DNA of 64,000 bases from an uncultured Acidobacteriota bacterium (GTDB lineage Bacteria; Acidobacteriota; Thermoanaerobaculia; UBA5066), in the NCBI GenBank assembly GCA_963779415.1, contig CAVZYA010000002.1:1056001-1120000 (forward strand), given 5' to 3'. The translations under genes and the position numbers were made by a program. The notes under the pieces were generated by a model. It did no database searches, was not told the DNA's origin, and saw only the letters and a list, made by a program, of their open reading frames with translations. Each line of letters begins with the position of its first letter. Position 1 is the first letter of the stretch. Positions 1-11,900 of the stretch are shown here, piece by piece.

Positions 1-700
1 AAGGACATCGAACTGGTGGAGTTCCCCTACGCGGATGACTGGTACAACGATCCGAAGATGCTGGATCCGATGGAGAATCCGTCCGAATTGTGGCTGAAGC
101 GCGACCACAAGCGCGACCTCGCCTTCCGTCCGTTGGAAACGGCCCTGGAAAAGGGCGTCATCGATGCGCTCTATTGTCAAAGCAAAGTGTTGAGCGTTCT
201 CGCCGAGGCAACCGGCAACTTCGTGTCCATTGAGGATTTGTCGAGGTATCCGGACTGGCGCCTGCAGGTGGCCAACATCCCGGCCGCGATCACGTGCAGC
301 GACGTGATGGCCGAGAAGCACCCCGAGCTGGCCGTCACGTTCATGAAGGGCATGATCAAGGTGGGGCGCTGGGCCAACGAGCACAAGCACGCGGCGGCGG
401 CGATCCTCGACAAGCAGACGTTTTACCTCGACGTCGAGGACACCTACCGGGGCATCAGAGACGTCGACATGGTGCCCAACCTGTCGCCGCAGAACCTGGC
501 CTCCGTGGAGATCGGGAAGAACTTCATGCTGAAGCATGGCTACATCAAGCGCGACTTCGACGTGCAGAAGTGGGCGGCTCCGGAGTTTCTCGAGCAGGCG
601 GCGCGGGAGCTCCTCGAAGCGCAGTGGAAGAAGACGACCACGGCGAAGCTCCCCGCGACGACTGAGCTGCAGGCGGCTTCCGCGGCGGGTCGGCTCGAGT
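1..700 (+). CDS. SsuA/THI5-fold substrate-binding-like protein, DszB (arylsulfinate desulfinase)-like; C-terminal part only, 3' end blurred by an indel
   Basis: The frame is open from the window edge. The C-terminus (..KHPELAVTFMKGMIKVGRWANEH..MVPNLS..NFMLKHGYIKRDFDVQKWAAPEFL) matches the SsuA/DszB-type class II binding-protein C-terminus as recalled (DszB ends ..DQWAAPEFL). The natural stop near 690-700 appears lost through extra bases. Confidence 0.6.
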
Positions 701-718
701 CGGAAGGGAGACAGATCC

Positions 719-2416
719 ATGAAAGTCATCATCGTGGGCGGAGTGGCGGGCGGAGCGTCGTGCGCGGCGCGGCTGCGCCGGCTGGACGAGAAGGCCGAGA
801 TCGTGATGGTGGAACGCGGGCCGTACCTCTCATACGCCAACTGCGGGCTGCCGTACCACGTCTCGGGCGTGATCGCCGAAGGAGTCGAGCCTCCTCGTGG
901 CCAACGAGCAGTACTTCAAGGCGAACCTCGGCGATCGACGCGCGGACGAACTGCGAGGCGGTCTCGATCGACCGGAAGAAGAAGACCGTCGGCCTGAAGA
1001 ACGTCAAGACCGGCGAGGTGACGACGGAGAAGTACGACAAGCTCGTCCTCTCGCCCGGGGCGCCTTCGGTCCGTCCGCCGCTTCCGGGGATCGACCTGCC
1101 CGGGATCTTCCAGGTGCGGACCGTGCCCGACGCGCGGGCGATCAAGGAGTGGATCGAGAAGGGGACGGTGTTCCTCGCCGGAATGTCCAACTACTCCGGG
1201 ATCCAGTTCGTCAAGCCGCCACGGCGCGCCGTCGTGATCGGCGGCGGGTTCATCGGCCTCGAGACGGCGGAGAACCTGATCCACGCGGGGTTCGAGGTGA
1301 CGCTCGTCGAGATGCTCGACCAGGTCCTCGCCCCGCTCGACCGCGAGTTCGCCCACCTCGTCGAGGAGCACCTGAAGAGGCACGGCATGACGGTCGCCCT
1401 CGGCGACGGCGTGGCCGGATTCACGCAGCTGGCGGGGGGCGCGATCGAGGTGAAGACGAAGTCCGGCAAGACGTACCCGGCCGACGTCGTGATCCTCGCC
1501 CTCGGCGTCCGGCCGGACACGACGCTCGCGAAGGCCGCCGGGCTCGAGATCGGCGAGCGCGGAGGGATCCGCGTCGACGACCAGATGCACACGAGCGACC
1601 CGGACATCTTCGCCGTCGGCGACGCCGTCGAGGTCAAGGACTGGGTGACGGGGCAGTGGAGCCTCGTGGCGCTCGCCGGGCCGGCGAACCGGCAGGGGCG
1701 GATCGCGGCCGACGTGATCGCCGGGCGCAAGTCCCGCTACCGCGGCACGCAGGGGACCTCGATCATCGGGCTCTTCGGCGGCGCCGCCGCCTGGACCGGC
1801 GTCAGCGAGAAGACGCTGAAGAAGAGCGGCGACACGGACTACGAGAAGATCTACATCTTCCCGAACTCGCACGCCGGCTACTACCCGGGCGCCAGGCTGA
1901 TCGGGCTGAAGTTCATCTTCCGGAAGTCCGACGGGCGGGTCCTCGGGGCGCAGGCGATCGGCGAGGACGCACCGGCGGTGGACAAGCGGATCAGCGCCCT
2001 CGCGATGGCCCTCCAGATGAAGGCGACGATCTACGACCTCGAGGAGGCCGAGCTCTGCTACGCGCCCCAGTTCGGCAGCGCGAAGGACGCGGTGAACTTC
2101 GCCGGGATGGTCGCGGCGGACGTCCTCCATGGGGACATGCCGCTCGCCCACTGGGACGAGACGAGAGGCGCGTTCCTCCTCGACGTGCGCCTGCCGGTCG
2201 AGCTCGTCGTCGAGAGCGTCCCCGGCGCCGTCAACATCCCGCTCCACCTGCTCCGCGCCCGCCTCGGCGAGGCTTCCGAAGGACCGGGAGATCCTCGTCA
2301 TCTGCCGCTCCGCCCAGCGCGCCTACTACGCGACGCGGGTCCTCCTGCAGAACGGATTCAAGGCCCGGAACATCTCGGGCGGCATGCTGTCGCGGGCCAT
2401 GCTTTCACCGCAGTAG
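719..2416 (+). CDS. CoA-disulfide/NADH persulfide reductase with C-terminal rhodanese domain (CoADR-RHD/Npsr-like), split by apparent frameshifts
   Basis: MKVIIVGGVAGGASCAARLRRL (FAD), SYANCGLPY redox Cys, GGGFIGLE (NADH), TSDPDIFAVGD, ELCYAPQF, rhodanese loop VICRSAQR. Pieces lie in different frames, with shifts near 880, 935 and 2270. Confidence 0.85.
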
Positions 2417-2449: not shown

Positions 2450-4870
2450 ATGACAACCGCAGCTGCTTCCGAGAAGAGCACCACCGGCCGCGTCAAGGCC
2501 GACAGCGCCCGGATCGACCGGCTGAAAGAACAGCTCCTGAGCACGCCTCAGGCACTGGACAACGAGCGGGTCCGGATCATGGCGGAGGTCTACGAGGGAA
2601 CCGCCGGATACCAGCAGATCATCCGCAGGGCCAAGTTCTTCTCCGAGCTGATCGAGAGGAAGAAGCTCTACATCGACGAGAACCTCATCGTCGGCAGCAT
2701 GGCGAGCAGCGTGAACGCCGTCTACACGTACCCGGAGTGGAACGTGGAGTGGATGAAGGCAGAGAAGACCGTCGAGAAATCGAAGACCCCGGAAGACCGC
2801 AAGGCGAACCAGTGGGCGCTCGAGTACTGGGACAAGTGGGCGCTGCGCCCGCGGGCCGACGAGATCTTCATCAAGAAGTACGGCTTCGATCCGGACCCGG
2901 TCTACAAGGCGGGCCTCATCGCCGAGTTCATGTCCTGGCCAGGTGGCGGAGGCAACCTCAACTATCCCCGGGTCTACCGGGAGGGCCTCGCCAGCATGAT
3001 CAAGGAGGTCGAGGAGCGGCAGAAGGCCCTCGACATGCGGCTGCCGAACGCGCCCAAGTTCTACTTCTACGAGGCCTGCCTGATCACGATGACGGCCGTC
3101 ATCCGGCTGGCCAACCGCTACGCCGAGCTGGCCCGGGAGATGGCGGCCAAGGAGAAGAACGCGGACCGCAAGGCCGAGCTCATTGGCATCGCCGAGACCT
3201 GCAAGTGGGTGCCTGAGCATCCTGCCCGTAATCTGAGAGAAGCGATCCAGGCTCATTTCTTCTGTCATATCTGCGCAGAGATCGAGCAGGTGGGTTGCGG
3301 CTACTCGGAGGCCTACCTGGGCCAGAACCTCGAGCCGTTCTACCAGCGTGACAAGGCCGCGGGGCTGATCGGTCCCGATGAGGCGACCTACCTGCTGCAG
3401 CTGCTCTTCGTCAAGCTGAACGAGATCGGGTACTACTACGGAGAGCAGGTGGCTCTGCAGAACTCCGCCGACCTTGGCCAGAGCATCACGGTCGGCGGCT
3501 ACACCGAAGACGGAGACGATGCCACCGCGGAGATGGACTACAACATTCTCGACGCCGCGAAGTACCTGAAGCTGCCCCAGCCGCCCCTCTCCTGCTGCTA
3601 CACGGAGAAGATGAGCGGCAAGTTCCTGGAGAAGGTCCTCGACGTCATCGACACCGGCGTCGGCATGCCGCAGTTCGTGAACGGCGACGTGATGATCAAG
3701 CGGGCCCTCAACCTCTTCGCAGGGAGCAAGAACGGTCTCACGCTCGAGAAGGCACGACGGACCTGTATCGGCGCGTGCGTGGGAAGCTACATCCCGTACG
3801 AGACCGGGCATCCGGTGGAGGGGCAGCCGAACCTCGGAAAGGTCCTCGAGCTGACGCTGAACAACGGCTTCGACCCCCGGACCAAGGTGCAGATCGGCCC
3901 CAAGACCGGGGATCCCGAGAAGTTCAAGGACTTCGAGGAGCTGTACGCGGCTTTCGAAAAGCAGCTCCAGTTCTGCGAGGACACGCTCCGCCGCGAGGCA
4001 TGGATCGCGAGCATCCTCTGCGCCGAATACCTTCCCGTCGCCTGGCGCTCCATCCTGACGAAGGGGTGCATCGAGAGCGGAACCGAGGTCTGGAACGGCG
4101 GCGCCAACTACTACACGGTTGCCCAGATCACCGTCGGTGGCGTGGACGCCGCCAACGGGCTCATGGCGGTGAAGAAGCTGGTGTACGACGACAAGAAGCT
4201 GACGATGGCCGAGCTGAAGAAGGCGCTGGCGGCGAACTTCGAGGGCGAGTACGAGAAGGTCCGGAAGCTCTGCTACGAGGCCCCCAAGCACGGAAACGAC
4301 ATCCCCGAGGTCAACAAGTTCGTTCGCCGTGTGTACAACTCCATCTTCCAGGCGTTCCAGAACGTGGACGGCGGCGGTAACTACATCAGCCCGGACATCA
4401 GATCGGCCCCCGACTCCTACACCAAGAGCATCCACAACCTGATGGGTCTGGTGACGGGCGCCCTGCCGACCGGCAAGAAGGCCGGCGTAGCCCTCTGCGA
4501 TGGCAGCCTGTCCGCCATGCCCGGCACCGACGTCAACGGGCCGACCGCGCTGGTCATGTCCGCGGCAAAGGGCGCGGACGCGGTCAAGTTCACCGCGACG
4601 CACATGAACATGAAGCTCCCTCCCAACCAGCTCAAGACCCGCAAGGGCCGAGAGACCCTGCTGAACCTCGTCAAGACCTATATGGACAACGACGGCTATC
4701 ACATCCAGTTCAACGTGCTGGACACCAACATCCTGAAGGACGCGCAGAAGCACCCGGAGAAGTACCGCGACCTGGTCGTGCGGGTGGCGGGGTTCAGCGC
4801 CTTCTTCACGAAGCTGCACCCGGGTGTGCAGAACGAGATCATCGCCCGCACCGAGCAGAGCTTCGGTTGA
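2450..4870 (+). CDS. Glycyl radical enzyme, uncharacterised; resembles the arylacetate-decarboxylase clade rather than PFL
   Basis: 806 aa with RBS AGGAGA. Glycyl loop RVAGFSAFF (Gly781), HIQFNV, KHGND. Cys loop RRTCIGACVGSY (Cys443) lacks both the PFL CC pair and the eliminase CVE motif. Confidence 0.92.
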   Translation: MTTAAASEKSTTGRVKADSARIDRLKEQLLSTPQALDNERVRIMAEVYEGTAGYQQIIRRAKFFSELIERKKLYIDENLIVGSMASSVNAVYTYPEWNVEWMKAEKTVEKSKTPEDRKANQWALEYWDKWALRPRADEIFIKKYGFDPDPVYKAGLIAEFMSWPGGGGNLNYPRVYREGLASMIKEVEERQKALDMRLPNAPKFYFYEACLITMTAVIRLANRYAELAREMAAKEKNADRKAELIGIAETCKWVPEHPARNLREAIQAHFFCHICAEIEQVGCGYSEAYLGQNLEPFYQRDKAAGLIGPDEATYLLQLLFVKLNEIGYYYGEQVALQNSADLGQSITVGGYTEDGDDATAEMDYNILDAAKYLKLPQPPLSCCYTEKMSGKFLEKVLDVIDTGVGMPQFVNGDVMIKRALNLFAGSKNGLTLEKARRTCIGACVGSYIPYETGHPVEGQPNLGKVLELTLNNGFDPRTKVQIGPKTGDPEKFKDFEELYAAFEKQLQFCEDTLRREAWIASILCAEYLPVAWRSILTKGCIESGTEVWNGGANYYTVAQITVGGVDAANGLMAVKKLVYDDKKLTMAELKKALAANFEGEYEKVRKLCYEAPKHGNDIPEVNKFVRRVYNSIFQAFQNVDGGGNYISPDIRSAPDSYTKSIHNLMGLVTGALPTGKKAGVALCDGSLSAMPGTDVNGPTALVMSAAKGADAVKFTATHMNMKLPPNQLKTRKGRETLLNLVKTYMDNDGYHIQFNVLDTNILKDAQKHPEKYRDLVVRVAGFSAFFTKLHPGVQNEIIARTEQSFG

Positions 4871-4918: not shown

Positions 4919-5027
4919 CCATTCTTCACGAGCAGCCCGGCACGGTTGGACGAAGGACGACGACGGACAGCGACCGCACGAACACGAGAGGCAATTTGTG
5001 ATCAAAGAGATCGGCCATGGGAGTTTC

Positions 5028-6173
5028 ATGAGACGCATCGCAATCAACGTCGGCGCTGGCTACGTCCCGGGGCTGAATGCCGTGGTCAAGGGCGCGGCCC
5101 TGGCGGCGGGCAGGATGGGATGGGAGATCGTCGGCATCCGGGACGGATTCGACGGGCTGCTGCACCCGGAGCGCTACCCGGACGGCGGCCTGCTGACCCT
5201 CAGCCCCGAGCTGGTCGAGAACATCGATCCGGCCGGCGGGGGCTTCCTGGGCCAGTCGGGCCGGGTCGACCCGTTTCACGTCCGCCGGGTCAACGAAGAC
5301 GAGATGGTCGAGGAAGTCGACATGTCCGACGAGCTCCTTGCCGCGTTCCGGAAGGAGCAGCTCGATGCGCTGATCTCCGTCGTCGGGGGGCGCGGGCTGA
5401 GCATCCTCTACAAGCTCCACCGCAAGGGGCTCCATACGGTCTGCGTCCCCCGGTCGATCGAGAACGACATCGCCGCGACCGCGGTCTCTTTCGGCTTCAA
5501 CAGCGCGCTCAGCTTCACCATCGAGATGCTGGACCGGGCCCGTCAGGCGGCCCAGGCGGCCCGCAAGATCGGGGTGGTGGAGGTCCTGGGAGAGCAGTCC
5601 GGGTGGGTAGCGCTCCAGGCTGCCATCGCCGTCTGCGCCGATGCGGTCCTGATTCCCGAGATCCTCTGCGACCTCAAGGTGGTGGCGTCGCGGCTGAAGG
5701 ACAAGGTGTCGCTCCGGAGGCCGTACGGCCTGGTGGTGGTGGCCGAAGGGGCCAGGTTCCTCGAGACCTCGAAAGCCGAGGCGAAGCCTTCCTCCCTCAA
5801 GGCCTCTCTGTCGCCGCTGGCGACCGGGGATGCCAGCGAGCACGTCATCCACAGGTCGGGTCAGGCCGCCGAGAAGGTGGCGAACGGGCTGCAGCTTCTG
5901 CTCGCCGAGGAAACCTATCCGCTCGTCCTGGGGCCCTGGGTCAGGGGCGGCACTCCGACCGCGGTCGACCGCCAGCTGGGCCTCGGTTACGGGGCCGGAG
6001 CCGTGCGCGCCCTGAAGGCCGGCAAGAACGGGATGATGGTGGCGTTCGTTCCCCCGGACATGAAGTTCGTGCCGCTGACGGAAGCGATCAACAAGGTCAG
6101 GACCGTACCTGCGGACAGCGAGTTCATGCAGATCGCCCAGAGCCTCGGCATCTGCCTCGGGAAGGAGCTGTGA
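5028..6173 (+). CDS. 6-phosphofructokinase (PfkA)-fold protein with degenerate catalytic motifs
   Basis: The Pfk layout is retained (PGLNAVV, GIRDGFDGL, SFGFNSA, VVVAEGA, RGGTPTAVDR). Key motifs are changed: GGD->GAGY, GGDGS->GGRGL, KTIDND->RSIEND, MGR->LGE, GHxQRGG->GPWVRGG. Alternative GTG start at 4998. Confidence 0.8.
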   Translation: MRRIAINVGAGYVPGLNAVVKGAALAAGRMGWEIVGIRDGFDGLLHPERYPDGGLLTLSPELVENIDPAGGGFLGQSGRVDPFHVRRVNEDEMVEEVDMSDELLAAFRKEQLDALISVVGGRGLSILYKLHRKGLHTVCVPRSIENDIAATAVSFGFNSALSFTIEMLDRARQAAQAARKIGVVEVLGEQSGWVALQAAIAVCADAVLIPEILCDLKVVASRLKDKVSLRRPYGLVVVAEGARFLETSKAEAKPSSLKASLSPLATGDASEHVIHRSGQAAEKVANGLQLLLAEETYPLVLGPWVRGGTPTAVDRQLGLGYGAGAVRALKAGKNGMMVAFVPPDMKFVPLTEAINKVRTVPADSEFMQIAQSLGICLGKEL

Positions 6174-7135
6174 TGAGCACGCCCGTGAACCCATCCGCTC
6201 CGACCGGCTTCGTTCTGAACATCCAGCGCTATTGCAGTCACGACGGCCCGGGTATCCGCACGAACGTATTCCTCAAGGGTTGCTCGCTCCGCTGCAAGTG
6301 GTGCGGCAACCCCGAGAGCATCGCCTTCAAGCCCGAACTCTCCTACGACCCCAGGAAGTGCACCGGCAGGAAGGAATGCGGCGTCTGCCTGAAGCCTCCC
6401 TTCCCGGAAGGCGCCTTCTATGTGCCGGAAAACGCTGCCGACGACAAGGTCAAGGTCAACTGGGACCTGGCGACGGGCTGCGACGAGGCGATGGTCGCGC
6501 TGTGCGAGCCGGGCGCTCTCGAGATGTTCGGCAAGCGAATGACGGTGGACGAGGTCCTGGACGAGGTAGAGAAGGACAGCTCCTTCTACCGGAACACCGG
6601 GGGTGGCATGACGCTGAGTGGCGGCGAGTGCCTGCTGCAGCCGGACTTCGCGGCCGCCCTGCTGAAGGGGGCCCACGACCGCGGCTTCAACACGGCGATC
6701 GAAACGGCGTGCAACGTTCCCTGGGCGTACGTGGAGAAGGTGCTGCCCCACGTCGATACCGTCCTCCACGACCACAAGATGACGATCCCGGAGCGCCACA
6801 AGAAGTGGGTCGGAGTGAGTAACGAGCGGATCCTCACGAACTTCAAGAGAGCCTACGAGACGTTTCCAAACGCGGACTTCATCGCCAGGACGCCGCTGAT
6901 TCCGGGCATAAACGCCGACGAGGAGCACATCCGGGCCGTCCTGGCGTTCATTCGCCCGCACAAGAACGTCATCGACTACGAGCTGCTGCCGTACCACCGC
7001 TTCGGCCTCGGCAAGTACGAGCTGCTGGGCGAGGTGTACGAGCTGGACGACTACAAGACGCCGTCGGACGACTTGGTCAAGCACCTCCAGGCCATCATCG
7101 ACGAGGCCTTCGGCCGCAGCGGAGGCACCAAGTGA
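6173..7135 (+). CDS. Glycyl-radical enzyme activating protein (radical SAM)
   Basis: HDGPGIRTNVFLKGCSLRCKWCGNPES, GGMTLSGGE, AIETAC, ELLPYHRFG. The start overlaps the pfk-like stop (TGATG). Confidence 0.93.
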   Translation: MSTPVNPSAPTGFVLNIQRYCSHDGPGIRTNVFLKGCSLRCKWCGNPESIAFKPELSYDPRKCTGRKECGVCLKPPFPEGAFYVPENAADDKVKVNWDLATGCDEAMVALCEPGALEMFGKRMTVDEVLDEVEKDSSFYRNTGGGMTLSGGECLLQPDFAAALLKGAHDRGFNTAIETACNVPWAYVEKVLPHVDTVLHDHKMTIPERHKKWVGVSNERILTNFKRAYETFPNADFIARTPLIPGINADEEHIRAVLAFIRPHKNVIDYELLPYHRFGLGKYELLGEVYELDDYKTPSDDLVKHLQAIIDEAFGRSGGTK

Positions 7136-8280
7136 CACCTAACGAAGACATCTACGAAAGGCTGGCGGCGGCGCTGGAGGCGCTCCCGCACGGCTTCGCC
7201 CGCACGCCTTCGGGCGTGGAGATCAAGTTGATGAAGAAGGCCTTCACGGAGGAGGAGGTCCGGTTGGCCGGCCAACTCACCCGCACCCCCGAAACGGCTG
7301 CCGAGATCGCCAAGCGGTTGGGCCGGGATGTGGCCGAGGTCACCGCGCTGCTCGAGAGGCTGATTCCGCTGGGCCTGGTCTCGCTTCCCGGAAACACGGC
7401 GGGGGGGGGCGTTCTGAAAGAGGAAATGAAAGGCGAGAGGAGATACCGGCTGCGCCCGTTCATGGTGGGCTGGTACGAGGCCGGCATGCGCCGCCTTGAC
7501 AAGGAGTTCGCCGAGCTGTTCGAGCAGTTCATCACCGAAGGCGGGGGCGAGCGTGTCTTCGCGCCGCGACCGGGACTGCTGGGCGTGGTGCCGGTGCGAG
7601 GTTCGCTCAAGCCCGAGTATGTCAAGCGCGAGCCGCATATAGACATTGACGCCCACTTCCAGCGGCACGAGCGCTTTCTCGTCATCCCCTGCGTCTGCAA
7701 ACGGGAGCGGGAAGTCCTGGGGGACTCGTCCTGCGGGAAGCCCATGAAGCGTTGTGGATTCGTGGGACTGCCGCCCCAGACCCCGCTGGGCGAGACCGTG
7801 CTGGGCCGGGAGGAGGCGTCCAAGCTCCTCACCGAGCTCGGCGAGCAGGGTCACGTCAACCTCGCGTTCTACGGCTTCACCATGTTCGCGGATGCGCCGC
7901 AGTTCATGGGCACGTGCAACTGCTGCTCCTGCTGCTGCGGGATACTCCACGGCCCGAAGCTGGCCGGCCTGGAGTCCCACCAAGGGCCGCAGCCGTCGAA
8001 CTTCCGCGCTGTCATCGACCCGGAGGCGTGCATTGCATGCGGCGTCTGCCAGGAGCGTTGTCCGGTGGACGCGATCTCCGACATCACGGAGCCGGGCCCG
8101 ATCGAGGGGAAGTCACGCGTAGAGCGGGCAAAGTGCATCGGATGCGGAGTGTGCGTGATCGGCTGCGCATCCGACGCGATTGTGATGGAGCCGGTCTCCC
8201 CGGAGGAGTGGTTCCACGTCCCCTCCAGCATGGCGGAGTGGGAAGAGATGCGGCTGAAGAACTTGGCGTCACAGAAATGA
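7132..8280 (+). CDS. Fe-S protein: N-terminal HTH-like region, Cys-rich core, C-terminal 2x[4Fe-4S] ferredoxin
   Basis: PCVCK..C..C, CNCCSCCC, CIACGVCQERCP and CIGCGVCVIGCAS; GTGA overlap with the activase stop. Confidence 0.8.
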   Translation: MTPNEDIYERLAAALEALPHGFARTPSGVEIKLMKKAFTEEEVRLAGQLTRTPETAAEIAKRLGRDVAEVTALLERLIPLGLVSLPGNTAGGGVLKEEMKGERRYRLRPFMVGWYEAGMRRLDKEFAELFEQFITEGGGERVFAPRPGLLGVVPVRGSLKPEYVKREPHIDIDAHFQRHERFLVIPCVCKREREVLGDSSCGKPMKRCGFVGLPPQTPLGETVLGREEASKLLTELGEQGHVNLAFYGFTMFADAPQFMGTCNCCSCCCGILHGPKLAGLESHQGPQPSNFRAVIDPEACIACGVCQERCPVDAISDITEPGPIEGKSRVERAKCIGCGVCVIGCASDAIVMEPVSPEEWFHVPSSMAEWEEMRLKNLASQK

Positions 8281-9106: not shown

Positions 9107-9991
9107 ATGTCGACCACCCTGACGCTCCTGTTCAAGATCACACTGGCGATCTTCATGGCGGGCAGCCTGCTGGAGATGGGCCTCCGGCTCAACCTCCAGG
9201 AGGCCTTCCGGGGGCTTCGCAACGTGCGCTTCGTGGCCTACACGCTGGTCTGGAGCTTCGTCCTCGTCCCCGCCCTCGCCTACGGGATCACACTCGTCAT
9301 CCCGCTGCAGGCCCCCTATGCCATCGGCCTCGTCCTTCTGGGCATGGCGCCCTGCGCGCCCTTTGTCCCCGGCCTCGTGGACAAGGCCAAGGGGGACCTT
9401 GGCTTCACGGCGGCCTTCATGCTCCTCGCCTCGGTCGGCACCGTCGTGTGCATGCCCTTTACGGTGCCTCTTCTCACCACGGGCCTGACCGCCAGCGCCT
9501 GGGCGATCGCCAAGCCCCTCCTGATCGTCGTCCTCCTGCCCATGGCAATCGGCGTCATCATCCGTCGTCAGGCGGATGCCTTCGCCTCCAAACTGCTCCC
9601 CTTCGCGAAGAAGCTCGCAGGGATCTTCGGCCTCCTCTGGTCCGTCCTGTGCCTCGTCATCTACGGGAAGGGCCTGCTCGGCGTGGCGGGCGAGTTCGCC
9701 CTCGCTTCGGAACTTCTCTTCTTCTGCGTGATCTTCCTGGGCACCTACTGGCTGGGCTTCGGCCTGCCCTATGAGCAGAAGATCGTGCTGAGCGTCGGGG
9801 TCACGACCCGGAACCTCGGCGCCTGTCTCACGCCGCTCCTCTCGGTGCCGGACATGGACCAGCGGGCCACGCTCATGATCGTGCTGGCGCTCCCCATCAT
9901 GGTCATCGTCTCGTTGCTGGGGGCGAAGTGGCTGGGCCCGGCGGCCGAACCGGGGTCCAAGACACCTGCGCCCGACCAGGCAAGTGCTTGA
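9107..9991 (+). CDS. Bile acid:Na+ symporter (BASS/ACR3) family transporter
   Basis: About 9 hydrophobic segments, MGLRL, APCAPFVP..AKGD, TRNLG. Confidence 0.8.
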   Translation: MSTTLTLLFKITLAIFMAGSLLEMGLRLNLQEAFRGLRNVRFVAYTLVWSFVLVPALAYGITLVIPLQAPYAIGLVLLGMAPCAPFVPGLVDKAKGDLGFTAAFMLLASVGTVVCMPFTVPLLTTGLTASAWAIAKPLLIVVLLPMAIGVIIRRQADAFASKLLPFAKKLAGIFGLLWSVLCLVIYGKGLLGVAGEFALASELLFFCVIFLGTYWLGFGLPYEQKIVLSVGVTTRNLGACLTPLLSVPDMDQRATLMIVLALPIMVIVSLLGAKWLGPAAEPGSKTPAPDQASA

Positions 9992-10082: not shown

Positions 10083-11900
10083 ATGAGTGAAGGTGCTCCC
10101 GGCGTGCTTGCCATGATCAGCTGGCCCCGCCCGTTCGTGGGACTCCGGGGCATCAGGCTGGCCGACGTCCCCCGCGAGGTCTCGGCGGGCGTCACGCTGG
10201 CCGCCCTCATGATCCCGCTCAACATCGGTTACGCGCAGGTGGCCGGCCTGCCGCCCGTGGCCGGCCTCTACGCGGCCATCATTCCCCTGGCCGTCTTCGC
10301 CCTGCTGGCGAGTTCGCGCCACCTGGTGACGAGCCCCGACGCCTCCATGGCCACCCTGGTCGGTGCCACTCTGGTCGCCTTCGCTGCGCCCGGAGACCCG
10401 TTGCGCCTGCAGTACGCCCTCGCCCTGGCGATGGTCTGCGCGCTGCTGTTCTTCCTCTTCTGGATTTTCCGGTTGGCGTTCCTCGCCAACTTCCTGTCGC
10501 GCGCCGTGATGGCGGGGTTCATCACCGGGCTCGGGGTCGAGGTGTTCACGAACCAGGTGCGAAAGATCCTCGCCGCCCCCCACGTGGCGGGCGCCGCGAC
10601 AGGCGTGCTGGCGGCGGCCGAACGGATCAAGGACGTCATGGCGAGCTCGGTGAACACCGAGGGCTACTTCGTGGAGGTCGTCGCCCTGATCCACTCGATC
10701 CCCCGGGCCAACCTTTACTCGGTGGCGATCGGCGTCGCCGCCTTTCTGACCGTCCGCCTTCTCAAGCGCTTCGCGCCCAGGATCCCGGGGGCGCTGGTGG
10801 CGCTGGGGGTGCTCACGCTCGCCGTGGCTTACTTCAACCTCGCCCAAAAGGGGGTCGGCGTCCTCGGCGCGATTCCCTCGGGTCTTCCGACCCTGACCCT
10901 GCCGGCCATCCCTGCCGCCGACTACCTGAGGCTGTTTCCCGGCGCCATGGCGATTGTGGCGATCCTGCTGTGTGAGGGCCTGCTCGTGGTCCGCAGCTAC
11001 AGCAGCAAGTACGGATACAAGGCGGACGGCGATCAGATGTTGTTCGCCTACGGCGCGGCAAACCTCGCGGCCGGGTTTACCGGCTCGCTACTGACCGGCA
11101 ACAGCCCCTCCCGCTCGGCAGCGATGGACTCCTCGGGAGCGAAGAGCCAGCTGCCGAGCCTGGTGGCGGCCGGGACGATCGCCGTGGTCATGCTGTTCTT
11201 CACCGACATGCTCGCGTACCTGCCGAATGCGGCCCTGGCGGGGATCGTCGCCAATGCGGTGCTCTCCCTGATCGAGGTCCACGAGCTCGGCGAGCTGTGG
11301 CGGATGCGGCGTTCGGAGTTCTGGATCGCCGCCACCTGCCTCCTGAGCGTGCTGGCTCTGGGGCCGCTGCGCGCCGTCCTCATCGCCTTTCTCCTGTCCA
11401 CGATCGACGTCATCCGGCGGGCGTCCCGCCCGGAGACGGCGGCGCTGCTCGAAGCCGCGGACGGCAGCCATTTCGCCGCCACGGACCTGGGCCAGGGCGT
11501 CAGTCCGTCGGGCCTGGTCGTCTATCGGTTCGGCGCCCCGCTCTACTTCGCCAACGCGACCCTGTTTCTCGACGAGGTCGAGCAACTGATCGCCCGGGCG
11601 CCGACCCCGGTCCGCTGGTTCGTGCTGGACGCGCAGGCGATGGTCGACGTCGACACCACCGGCGCGGAGGTCCTTCGGCAGGCAATCACCTTGCTGACCG
11701 GGCGCGGCATCGTCTTCGCCGTCAGCCGCGCCGATCGGTCCTTCCGCTCCTGGCTGGAGCGATACGGGCTCATGAAGCTGATTGACCAGAAGCGCTTCTA
11801 CCCGACCAACCGCCACGCCGCGGCGGCGTTTCGCGAGGACTCGGGGCGCGAGGCGGAGCCGCCCGGAACGGCCTCGCCGCCTCTCCCTCAGGGTACGTGA
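10083..11900 (+). CDS. SulP/SLC26 anion permease with STAS domain
   Basis: AGVTLAALMIPLNIGYAQVAGLPPVAGLY, SPSRSA, YRFGAPLYFANA, DVDTTGAE. Confidence 0.92.
   Translation: MSEGAPGVLAMISWPRPFVGLRGIRLADVPREVSAGVTLAALMIPLNIGYAQVAGLPPVAGLYAAIIPLAVFALLASSRHLVTSPDASMATLVGATLVAFAAPGDPLRLQYALALAMVCALLFFLFWIFRLAFLANFLSRAVMAGFITGLGVEVFTNQVRKILAAPHVAGAATGVLAAAERIKDVMASSVNTEGYFVEVVALIHSIPRANLYSVAIGVAAFLTVRLLKRFAPRIPGALVALGVLTLAVAYFNLAQKGVGVLGAIPSGLPTLTLPAIPAADYLRLFPGAMAIVAILLCEGLLVVRSYSSKYGYKADGDQMLFAYGAANLAAGFTGSLLTGNSPSRSAAMDSSGAKSQLPSLVAAGTIAVVMLFFTDMLAYLPNAALAGIVANAVLSLIEVHELGELWRMRRSEFWIAATCLLSVLALGPLRAVLIAFLLSTIDVIRRASRPETAALLEAADGSHFAATDLGQGVSPSGLVVYRFGAPLYFANATLFLDEVEQLIARAPTPVRWFVLDAQAMVDVDTTGAEVLRQAITLLTGRGIVFAVSRADRSFRSWLERYGLMKLIDQKRFYPTNRHAAAAFREDSGREAEPPGTASPPLPQGT

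Follow-up and report, generated by a model that had tools for sequence, protein, structure and literature searches.

Most activating enzymes (activases) of glycyl radical enzymes (GREs) possess an auxiliary ferredoxin domain with eight cysteines (PMC13450708 section 2.1), and accessory subunits of the GREs are known to aid solubility and to regulate activation (PMC13450708 section 4.2). The sections of PMC13450708 considered here list such subunits only for the GREs, give the function of the auxiliary domain as unknown, and contain the word 'kinase' once, in a reference. Among the accessory proteins in GRE systems are BSS beta and gamma, HPAD gamma, MASS beta, gamma and delta, and BssE and BssF; the small subunits bind the GRE and resemble high-potential iron-sulfur proteins (HiPIPs) or rubredoxins, and BssE is described, in the portion of PMC7285207 considered, as an AAA+ putative chaperone of uncertain function. 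Here we analyze a 64,000-nucleotide stretch of DNA (the window) from an uncultured Acidobacteriota bacterium, in which a gene for a phosphofructokinase (Pfk)-like protein lies between the genes for an orphan GRE and an activase. The protein has a Pfk fold, its family as a whole has lost the residues for magnesium, catalysis and fructose-6-phosphate (F6P), the gene is under purifying selection, its stop is coupled to the activase start, and it travels with the activase across unrelated GRE classes. From sequence comparison and a structural model, it is probable that the Pfk-like protein is a non-catalytic subunit that binds the activase. The three genes are as follows.

4998..6173, + strand: Pfk-fold pseudo-kinase, 391 aa from GTG 4998 or 381 aa from ATG 5028; predicted activase-binding subunit
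6173..7135, + strand: GRE activating enzyme, a radical S-adenosylmethionine (SAM) protein; 313.9 against 174.35 bits with TIGR02494; nearest named model HpsH, under the cut-off
2450..4870, + strand: orphan GRE, 806 aa; cysteine loop GACVGS without the CxE glutamate; glycine loop RVAGF; below the cut-offs of all named NCBIfam GRE models

In contrast to the small GRE subunits, which are HiPIP- or rubredoxin-like iron proteins, the Pfk-like protein has 381-391 aa (391 from the GTG), a Pfk fold and no conserved cysteine cluster motif, and its predicted partner is the activase. C139 is its sole invariant cysteine in 60 close members. Both the GRE/activase framework and the general idea of pseudo-enzyme subunits are established; a Pfk-like component is without precedent in the literature that we searched. 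We found no mention there of GRE operons with a Pfk-like gene, although supplementary neighbourhood tables of GRE discovery papers could list it as 'phosphofructokinase'.

A Pfk fold with rewritten kinase residues

An initial annotation of this locus, made from the letters of the DNA, had described an intact gene with normal codon bias that overlaps the activase start, and this description holds. The open reading frame 5028-6173 is intact (381 aa), its G+C content at third codon positions is 0.91 and similar to that of the GRE and activase genes, and its stop codon shares one base with the activase ATG (TGATG, 6171-6175). The true start is probably the GTG at 4998, which would give 391 aa, because a GAGAGG lies 7 nt 5' of it, the database entry for the protein is 391 aa long, and the same N-terminal extension occurs in many close homologues. 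A promoter and terminator scan returned no signal exceeding that of shuffled sequence. Three sediment RNA-library runs from one study contained only 0.07-0.12 of the sequence words; the pseudo-kinase and the other genes of the island are covered by contigs from these runs, for the most part at 85-95% likeness, and these contigs represent relatives rather than evidence of transcription.

The protein belongs to the PfkA superfamily by its two-domain Pfk fold and by its match to the Pfam PFK family PF00365 (E 3e-59, 201 bits against a gathering score of 30.9), which is its only Pfam domain; no DNA-binding or output domain was found by Pfam. An AlphaFold2 model (pLDDT 71.8, pTM 0.59) retrieved PfkA-family Pfks in all rows listed by Foldseek, with a best E of 1e-24. 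The protein is under the cut-off in all 11 matching NCBIfam Pfk models, the best being TIGR02483 (241 against 430.55 bits), whereas its canonical relatives L086 and L088 pass the cut-off of PRK03202. Databases label family members '6-phosphofructokinase' and the ESM Atlas neighbours are PFK-named clusters only; these names look automatic. The closest described family is the Group III 'mixed-substrate' PfkA-family Pfks (TIGR02483, IPR012829), with which the protein shares fold, layout, ancestry, a hairpin near residue 90 and the C-terminal helix, the nearest canonical members being 37-48% identical. However, the Group III motifs GGGD, GGDG, PKTIDND, MGR and GHxxRGG are rewritten in the window protein, and there is a family-specific insert near 257-267.

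In the part of PMC12203962 considered here, GGDG is the motif of ATP-dependent Pfks and GGDD that of pyrophosphate (PPi)-dependent ones, P(G/K)TIDXD holds the catalytic base Asp127, and Arg162 has a role in F6P binding. The window protein has VGGR in place of GGDG or GGDD, with the Asp found in 0/174 family members, and PRSIEND in place of the catalytic-base motif. We take M169, R171, R243, H249, R252 and E222 (E. coli numbering) to be F6P-binding positions, and this set, with R162, is not retained as a whole either. Residues were counted in 175 aligned family members and in the 17 nearest canonical Pfks. Retention in the family is 0/174 for D12 and for D103, 3/174 for G104 (G or D), 1/175 for T125, 10/175 for D127 (Glu in 161), 2/175 for M169, 0/175 for R171, 1/175 for R243 and 3/175 for H249, and all 17 canonical relatives retain the canonical residues scored. 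Seven canonical residues taken together are all present in 17/17 canonical relatives; 159/175 family members keep none of them and 16/175 keep one, which neither chance nor decay in this genome alone would explain. Other positions are largely kept, namely G11 (167/174), D129 (157/175), E222 (156/175) and a basic residue at 72, 162 and 252 (R162 in 47/175 with Lys in 123; R252 in 132/174 with Lys in 41).

All five motif changes named in the initial annotation are present in the protein, but one of them was read one residue out of register: the proposed GGDG to GGRG change is ruled out by the ungapped alignment to the 17 nearest canonical Pfks, in which GGDG corresponds to VGGR. In this alignment the magnesium-binding Asp becomes Gly121 and the Gly of the ATP alpha-phosphate site becomes Arg122, a position with Arg, Gln or Lys in 157/174 members. 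The 'charge reversal' from MGR to LGE is real here but is not constant in the family, where Glu is found in 124/175 members and Ala, Gln, Gly, Ser or Thr in the others. In the divergent set of loci introduced below, the old catalytic positions drift (G/S/D/E at 120, S/A/P/T at 121, K/T/E/V at 142). Two canonical Pfks are encoded on a different contig of the organism's genome. At L001 (G000:C1:84119-86344) this genome has a tandem, eukaryote-like double-domain Pfk of 741 aa, with a PPi-type Pfk (GGDD) encoded a few kb away.

The pseudo-kinase family is real, strongly conserved and widespread. In a protein search, the best 120 of 4986 matches are homologues at 79-100% identity, and in a profile search over 50%-cluster representatives (best 150 listed) the degenerate family reaches about 42% identity among the matches listed. 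The median dN/dS of the Pfk-like gene is 0.154 (38 sequences; 416/703 pairs with dS of 0.05-1.5), compared with 0.125 for the activase and 0.147 for the GRE, so the gene is under purifying selection. This value and the at least 120 homologues at 79-100% identity rule out private decay, and the dN/dS together with the family-wide residue loss supports the initial view that the protein is conserved, is not a glycolytic Pfk and probably acts as an accessory pseudo-enzyme. A tree of 88 rows (a family sample plus 39 other Pfks; quick mode, midpoint root) separates the 49 family rows from the others at a branch with SH-aLRT support of 100, and the family branches among the group III Pfks. Three group III Pfks outside the family branch, P0165, P0189 and P0235, also have eroded motifs and are possibly independent pseudo-kinases. 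A plasmid search gave 19 records, all below 60% identity (12 listed at 30-34%), and a cluster look-up found 0/10 proteins from cultured isolates.

The gene travels with the activase

A genome scan gave 195 confirmed stretches, the best 80 of which correspond to 78 loci at 67-96% identity, all from metagenome-derived assemblies. These loci span the Acidobacteriota, Actinomycetota, Chloroflexota, Bacteroidota, Verrucomicrobiota, Kiritimatiellota, Nitrospirota, Gemmatimonadota, Hydrogenedentes, and the delta- and alpha/beta/gamma-proteobacteria. The activase gene lies directly downstream of the Pfk-like gene in 77/77 informative loci, the one miss among the 78 being a contig edge, and the estimated gap is at most 25 nt in 76/77. 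Scanning was repeated with a divergent alignment, and the best 80 of 449 metagenome stretches were kept, with 51-67% identity to the window protein. Here the activase is directly behind the Pfk-like gene in 66/66 informative loci, the other 14 being too short.

The GRE is less closely tied to this pair. It is present in 78/78 close loci, usually directly upstream, but in the divergent set it is adjacent in 13 loci and separated in 27, and in L019, L029 and L065 the GRE is displaced with the Pfk-like/activase pair intact. Nearly all GREs of the divergent set are of another class: the median identity between the two sets is 60% for the Pfk-like protein and 66% for the activase but 31% for the GRE (37 and 16 loci with all three genes). 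Pairwise distances of the Pfk-like protein track those of the activase (rho 0.60) more than those of the GRE (0.11), although the pairs are not independent. Further, a second GRE in the organism's own genome has its own activase and no Pfk-like gene. Since the activase stays adjacent while the GRE moves or changes class, the partner of the Pfk-like protein is the activase and not the GRE. A Pfk-derived accessory factor of the GRE, whose homologues would always neighbour this GRE, is therefore improbable; the complex, too, is predicted with the activase.

The GREs of the second class are related to known sulfonate enzymes. The example in L084 is close to IseG/IslA/HpsG (E 8e-238; 981.7 bits against a cut-off of 1000), and the coupled activases score best with the model of HpsH (344 and 383 bits; cut-off 430); HpsH, IseH and IslB belong to the sulfonate C-S lyase systems HpsG/HpsH, IseG/IseH and IslA/IslB. 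This second GRE clade (L084:4057-6564; L128-L207) is sister to IseG/IslA/HpsG, has the cysteine loops GCTE, GCSE, GCCEN and GCME, is often found with a short-chain dehydrogenase/reductase (SDR) and uses the same partner-activase pair.

The reverse comparison, from the activase to the Pfk-like gene, gave a similar picture. In a sample of 401 genomes of the organism's own phylum (150 of 246 matches listed, ranked by E-value), the pseudo-kinase and the activase clade occur in the same 5 genomes, its own included, and are always adjacent among the matches listed. The next tier of activases (38-44%) has the partner within 1.5 kb in 0/20 cases, and the fetched canonical Pfks (37-48%) have a GRE or activase beside them in 0/17 cases (5.6-16 kb examined). 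In 401 genomes of a second phylum the partner is found with 6/7 clade activases (one being the search centre and one frameshifted), and both next-tier activases are without it.

Extra copies of the Pfk-like gene are found in many loci and point to another gene of the island:

7132..8280, + strand: Cys-rich protein with a C-terminal 2[4Fe-4S] ferredoxin domain; an N-terminal winged helix is our own reading of a weak Pfam match

Of 23 extra copies without an activase behind them, 22 precede a paralogue of this Cys-rich protein and the other lies at a contig edge. Because the extra copies also precede ferredoxin-domain proteins, the Pfk-like family always precedes a protein with a ferredoxin-type domain, whereas the 17 canonical relatives have no GRE or activase beside them. 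The extra copies fall into two subtypes, B and C, which share one branch nested in A. Two paralogue types of the ferredoxin protein each carry their own Pfk-like gene, with H-T and Y substitutions in the ferredoxin domain; coupled and uncoupled ferredoxin proteins (17 versus 19 sequences) are told apart by 11 positions, of which the ferredoxin domain contains 6, a nominal p of 0.007 that stems from a single tree split. The window protein and the paralogues L075:11573-12760 and L075:14047-15180 have a CxC, a CNCCxCCC run and the 2[4Fe-4S] domain.

Predicted complex and rival explanations

The window activase has the radical SAM CxxxCxxC motif, with C37, C41 and C44 invariant in 60 sequences, and its auxiliary ferredoxin domain carries N-W-D-L, the predicted docking motif on the pseudo-kinase. 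In the window clade only C63, C69, C72 and C111 of this domain are invariant (60/60), rather than eight cysteines; these four would be enough for one cluster. A complex of the two proteins was modelled from our own alignments (60 and 59 rows). The pair scored 0.72, 0.64 and 0.68 (median 0.68), the best of 3 controls 0.03; the score mark was reached by 116/157 solved complexes and 2/215 mismatched pairs, counts that are only a rough guide as our own alignments were used. The runs share at least 46% of contacts and the partner pLDDT is at least 83, while the activase modelled alone has a pLDDT of 80.0 and a pTM of 0.77. We know of no solved Pfk-activase complex that the model could copy. The multimer check suggested in the initial annotation, run with the activase, is passed by the pair, and it supports but does not show binding. 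PFL-AE, the pyruvate formate-lyase activase, is given as the only solved activase (PMC13450708 section 2.1).

On the activase side, the confident contacts are 80-101 in the auxiliary domain (above all N96, D98 and L99), 37-40 in the radical SAM cluster loop, 181-183 and 214-219. The activase DGPG motif (24-27), which we take to be the Gly-loop-binding motif of PFL-AE, is absent from the listed contacts, an unlisted residue being uncertain. On the Pfk-like side the confident contacts are 81, 83, 86-96, 122-129 and 351-359. By sequence alignment, not superposition, 122 and 126 correspond to the ATP alpha-phosphate and adenine positions given in the part of PMC12203962 considered, so that the activase would fill the old nucleotide pocket.

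The predicted contacts are also well conserved. Divergent members keep D81 (77/79), F83 (79/79), R86 (76/79), E95 (74/79), E96 (79/79) and N355 (76/79), and on the activase W97 and L99 are present in 113/113 coupled and 0/20 uncoupled sequences, with N181 in 113/113 coupled ones. The hairpin 86-96 is deleted or altered in most of 18 ferredoxin-coupled paralogues, which were not in the model input, and positions specific to the activase-coupled proteins fall inside the 25-residue interface in 7/22 (nominal p 2e-4) and 4/10 (p 2e-3) cases.

In the model, activase N96-W97-D98-L99 would plug the former ATP pocket (81, 83, 122-129, 354-356) and the hairpin 86-96 (DEMVEE) would touch the cluster loop C37-S38-L39-R40. 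With its auxiliary Fe-S domain clamped in this way onto the catalytic cluster loop, the activase may stay folded and soluble, and the Pfk-like protein may set the electron loading of the activase and with it how efficiently the GRE gets its glycyl radical. More speculatively, a remnant sugar-site pocket (E145, D147, K180, E240, R306) could add ligand control. A wider picture, which we regard as rather doubtful, is that the activases of this clade are two-subunit enzymes. In it, a Pfk would have been recruited as a docking subunit for 2[4Fe-4S] ferredoxins (the auxiliary domain of the activase, or the ferredoxin protein in the case of the duplicates), its sugar-phosphate pocket would let a metabolite gate radical installation, and the whole would form a portable module for unrelated GREs in at least 10 phyla.

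Several observations weigh against an activase-binding subunit, beginning with the fact that binding rests on a model. The clade-specific positions of the activase are not enriched in the predicted interface (5/23, p 0.38; 4/23, p 0.44), and the p-values on the Pfk-like side overstate the significance, because the hairpin loss is one evolutionary event and the hairpin positions are neighbours. The Glu kept at the catalytic-base position (161/175), together with D129, E222 and R/K252, means that residual activity or a ligand site is possible. IseH activated IseG in vitro without a Pfk-like partner, as a maltose-binding protein fusion and with a chaperone, and 'kinase' is absent from the main text of that paper (PMC6453916, in the part considered). 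Among the divergent coupled activases 44/52 keep eight cysteines, so loss of the second cluster is not needed for coupling; the idea that the partner makes up for a lost second auxiliary cluster is thereby ruled out. Finally, the genome G473 has a clade activase (75% identical to that of L084, N-W-D-L kept) in a GRE-SDR-activase operon without the partner, where L084 has the order GRE-SDR-partner-activase. G473 is an incomplete genome, in which no Pfk-like copy was found with the query used. In the G473 activase the predicted contact R40 is replaced by Gln; 112/113 coupled activases have Arg there, though G473 is one case. G473 rules out a strictly obligate partner: because its activase lacks the Pfk-like protein, the partner is the rule for clade activases but is not obligatory, and the pseudo-kinase is an accessory and not an absolute requirement.

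We consider it unlikely that the protein is a real phosphotransferase, or another enzyme, that acts on some non-sugar substrate in the GRE pathway with a rebuilt active site, more diverged than that of sulfofructose kinase (SqiK). The catalytic-base position is acidic in 171/175 members (Glu 161, Asp 10), D129, E222, G11 and the basic residues at 72, 162 and 252 largely persist, and the neighbouring genes hint at organosulfur chemistry. There is also a precedent for repurposing in the PfkA family, as SqiK of sulfo-EMP2, likewise in PF00365, has changed its role in sulfur metabolism (PMC9594981, in the part considered); SqiK is an active kinase. However, the magnesium-binding Asp is absent in 174/174 members, the ATP alpha-phosphate site is basic or Gln in most, and the divergent set shows drift at the old active-site positions, where a new active site would be conserved. 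SqiK, for comparison, presumably keeps its ATP and magnesium motifs. Moreover, one family serves GREs that are 31% identical and have different cysteine loops, which makes a shared small-molecule substrate unlikely, and the predicted activase contact covers the former ATP pocket. The kinase for a non-sugar substrate that the initial annotation had offered as an option is thus weakened, the phosphoryl-donor site not being conserved within the family. It seems equally improbable that the protein serves the GRE itself, whether as a small subunit of the BSS, HPAD or MASS kind or as a chaperone, the putative role of BssE. GRE-binding subunits are known (PMC13450708 section 4.2) and a GRE accompanies every close locus, but it can be separated, downstream or exchanged for the other class while the activase adjoins, the distances follow the activase, and 22/22 extra copies precede a ferredoxin-domain protein and not a GRE.

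It is also unlikely that the protein senses a metabolite or regulates on its own, merely being co-translated with the activase without stably binding it. The C-terminal half of eukaryotic Pfk has lost catalysis and serves stability and allosteric control (PMC12203962, in the part considered), the sugar-side pocket is partly kept here, and one clade activase (G473) lacks the gene. Yet the eukaryotic half is fused to an active Pfk that it regulates, whereas this is a separate bacterial protein with an unrelated radical SAM enzyme as its predicted partner. It has the PFK domain only, the complex model passes with controls near zero, and the predicted contacts are among the best-conserved residues. 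An ordinary glycolytic Pfk or a decaying copy is barely credible: the database names that, with the ESM Atlas neighbours, favour it look automatic, and the protein is below all Pfk cut-offs, with residues lost family-wide, a dN/dS of 0.15, a separate branch and two canonical Pfks elsewhere in the genome. The activase-binding, non-catalytic subunit thus remains the reading that we favour.

The surrounding island and its implications

The remaining genes of the island recur in many of the 78 loci:

1..717, + strand: 3' part of a DszB (aryl-sulfinate desulfinase)-like gene, cut by the window edge; in 38/78 loci
719..2416, + strand: CoA-disulfide reductase-rhodanese fusion (persulfide-reductase type), frameshifted in the assembly; in 43/78 loci
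9107..9991, + strand: SBF/BASS family Na+ symporter; in 41/78 loci
10083..11900, + strand: SulP/SLC26 anion transporter with STAS domain; in 26/78 loci

The recurrence of the DszB-like (E 1e-11 to 2de2), CoA-disulfide reductase-rhodanese, rhodanese, SulP and SBF genes in 25-43 of the loci suggests that the chemistry of the island is organosulfur, but the cysteine loop of the GRE lacks the eliminase glutamate. The CxE motif on this loop is used by GRE 1,2-eliminases (PMC13450708 section 5.6), including the C-S lyases; the window GRE instead reads CIGACVGSY, and the four commonest forms of the loop (35/38 sequences) are without Glu. Orphan GREs of the window type are 68-97% identical across many phyla and often have a second cysteine four residues before the presumed catalytic one.

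DszB is 2'-hydroxybiphenyl-2-sulfinate desulfinase, and its relative here lies in an anaerobic GRE island, with two copies in L036. In a full-length homologue (L005:2478-3680) an N-terminal cysteine aligns with the DszB cysteine. The frameshifts of 719-2416 are probably assembly errors, because RNA-library relatives are without the single letters near 875, 933 and 2271; the end of the DszB-like gene near 680-700 also seems to be affected. Other recurrent genes of the island encode a SAM synthetase (11 loci; L006:3472-4665), an FNR-type reductase (10 loci; L045:10330-11163) and a ferredoxin-nitroreductase (8 loci; L036:15279-16064), which would suit the need of activation for SAM and electrons. 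A PAS histidine kinase and a LuxR-type response regulator are encoded next to the island on the minus strand (window:13411-16004), and similar regulators flank several related loci.

The family described here is predicted to bind the auxiliary domain of GRE activases, through interface residues that can be named. If this is true, no earlier example of a protein subunit dedicated to a GRE activase appears in the literature that we searched, and the complex would offer a way to the structure of an activase with its auxiliary domain. Co-expression would then be the obvious route to activating both of the uncharacterised GRE clades, the orphan one and the sister of the sulfonate lyases. It would also mean that in genomes from soil and sediment many proteins are wrongly annotated as '6-phosphofructokinase', which inflates the glycolysis inferred from them.

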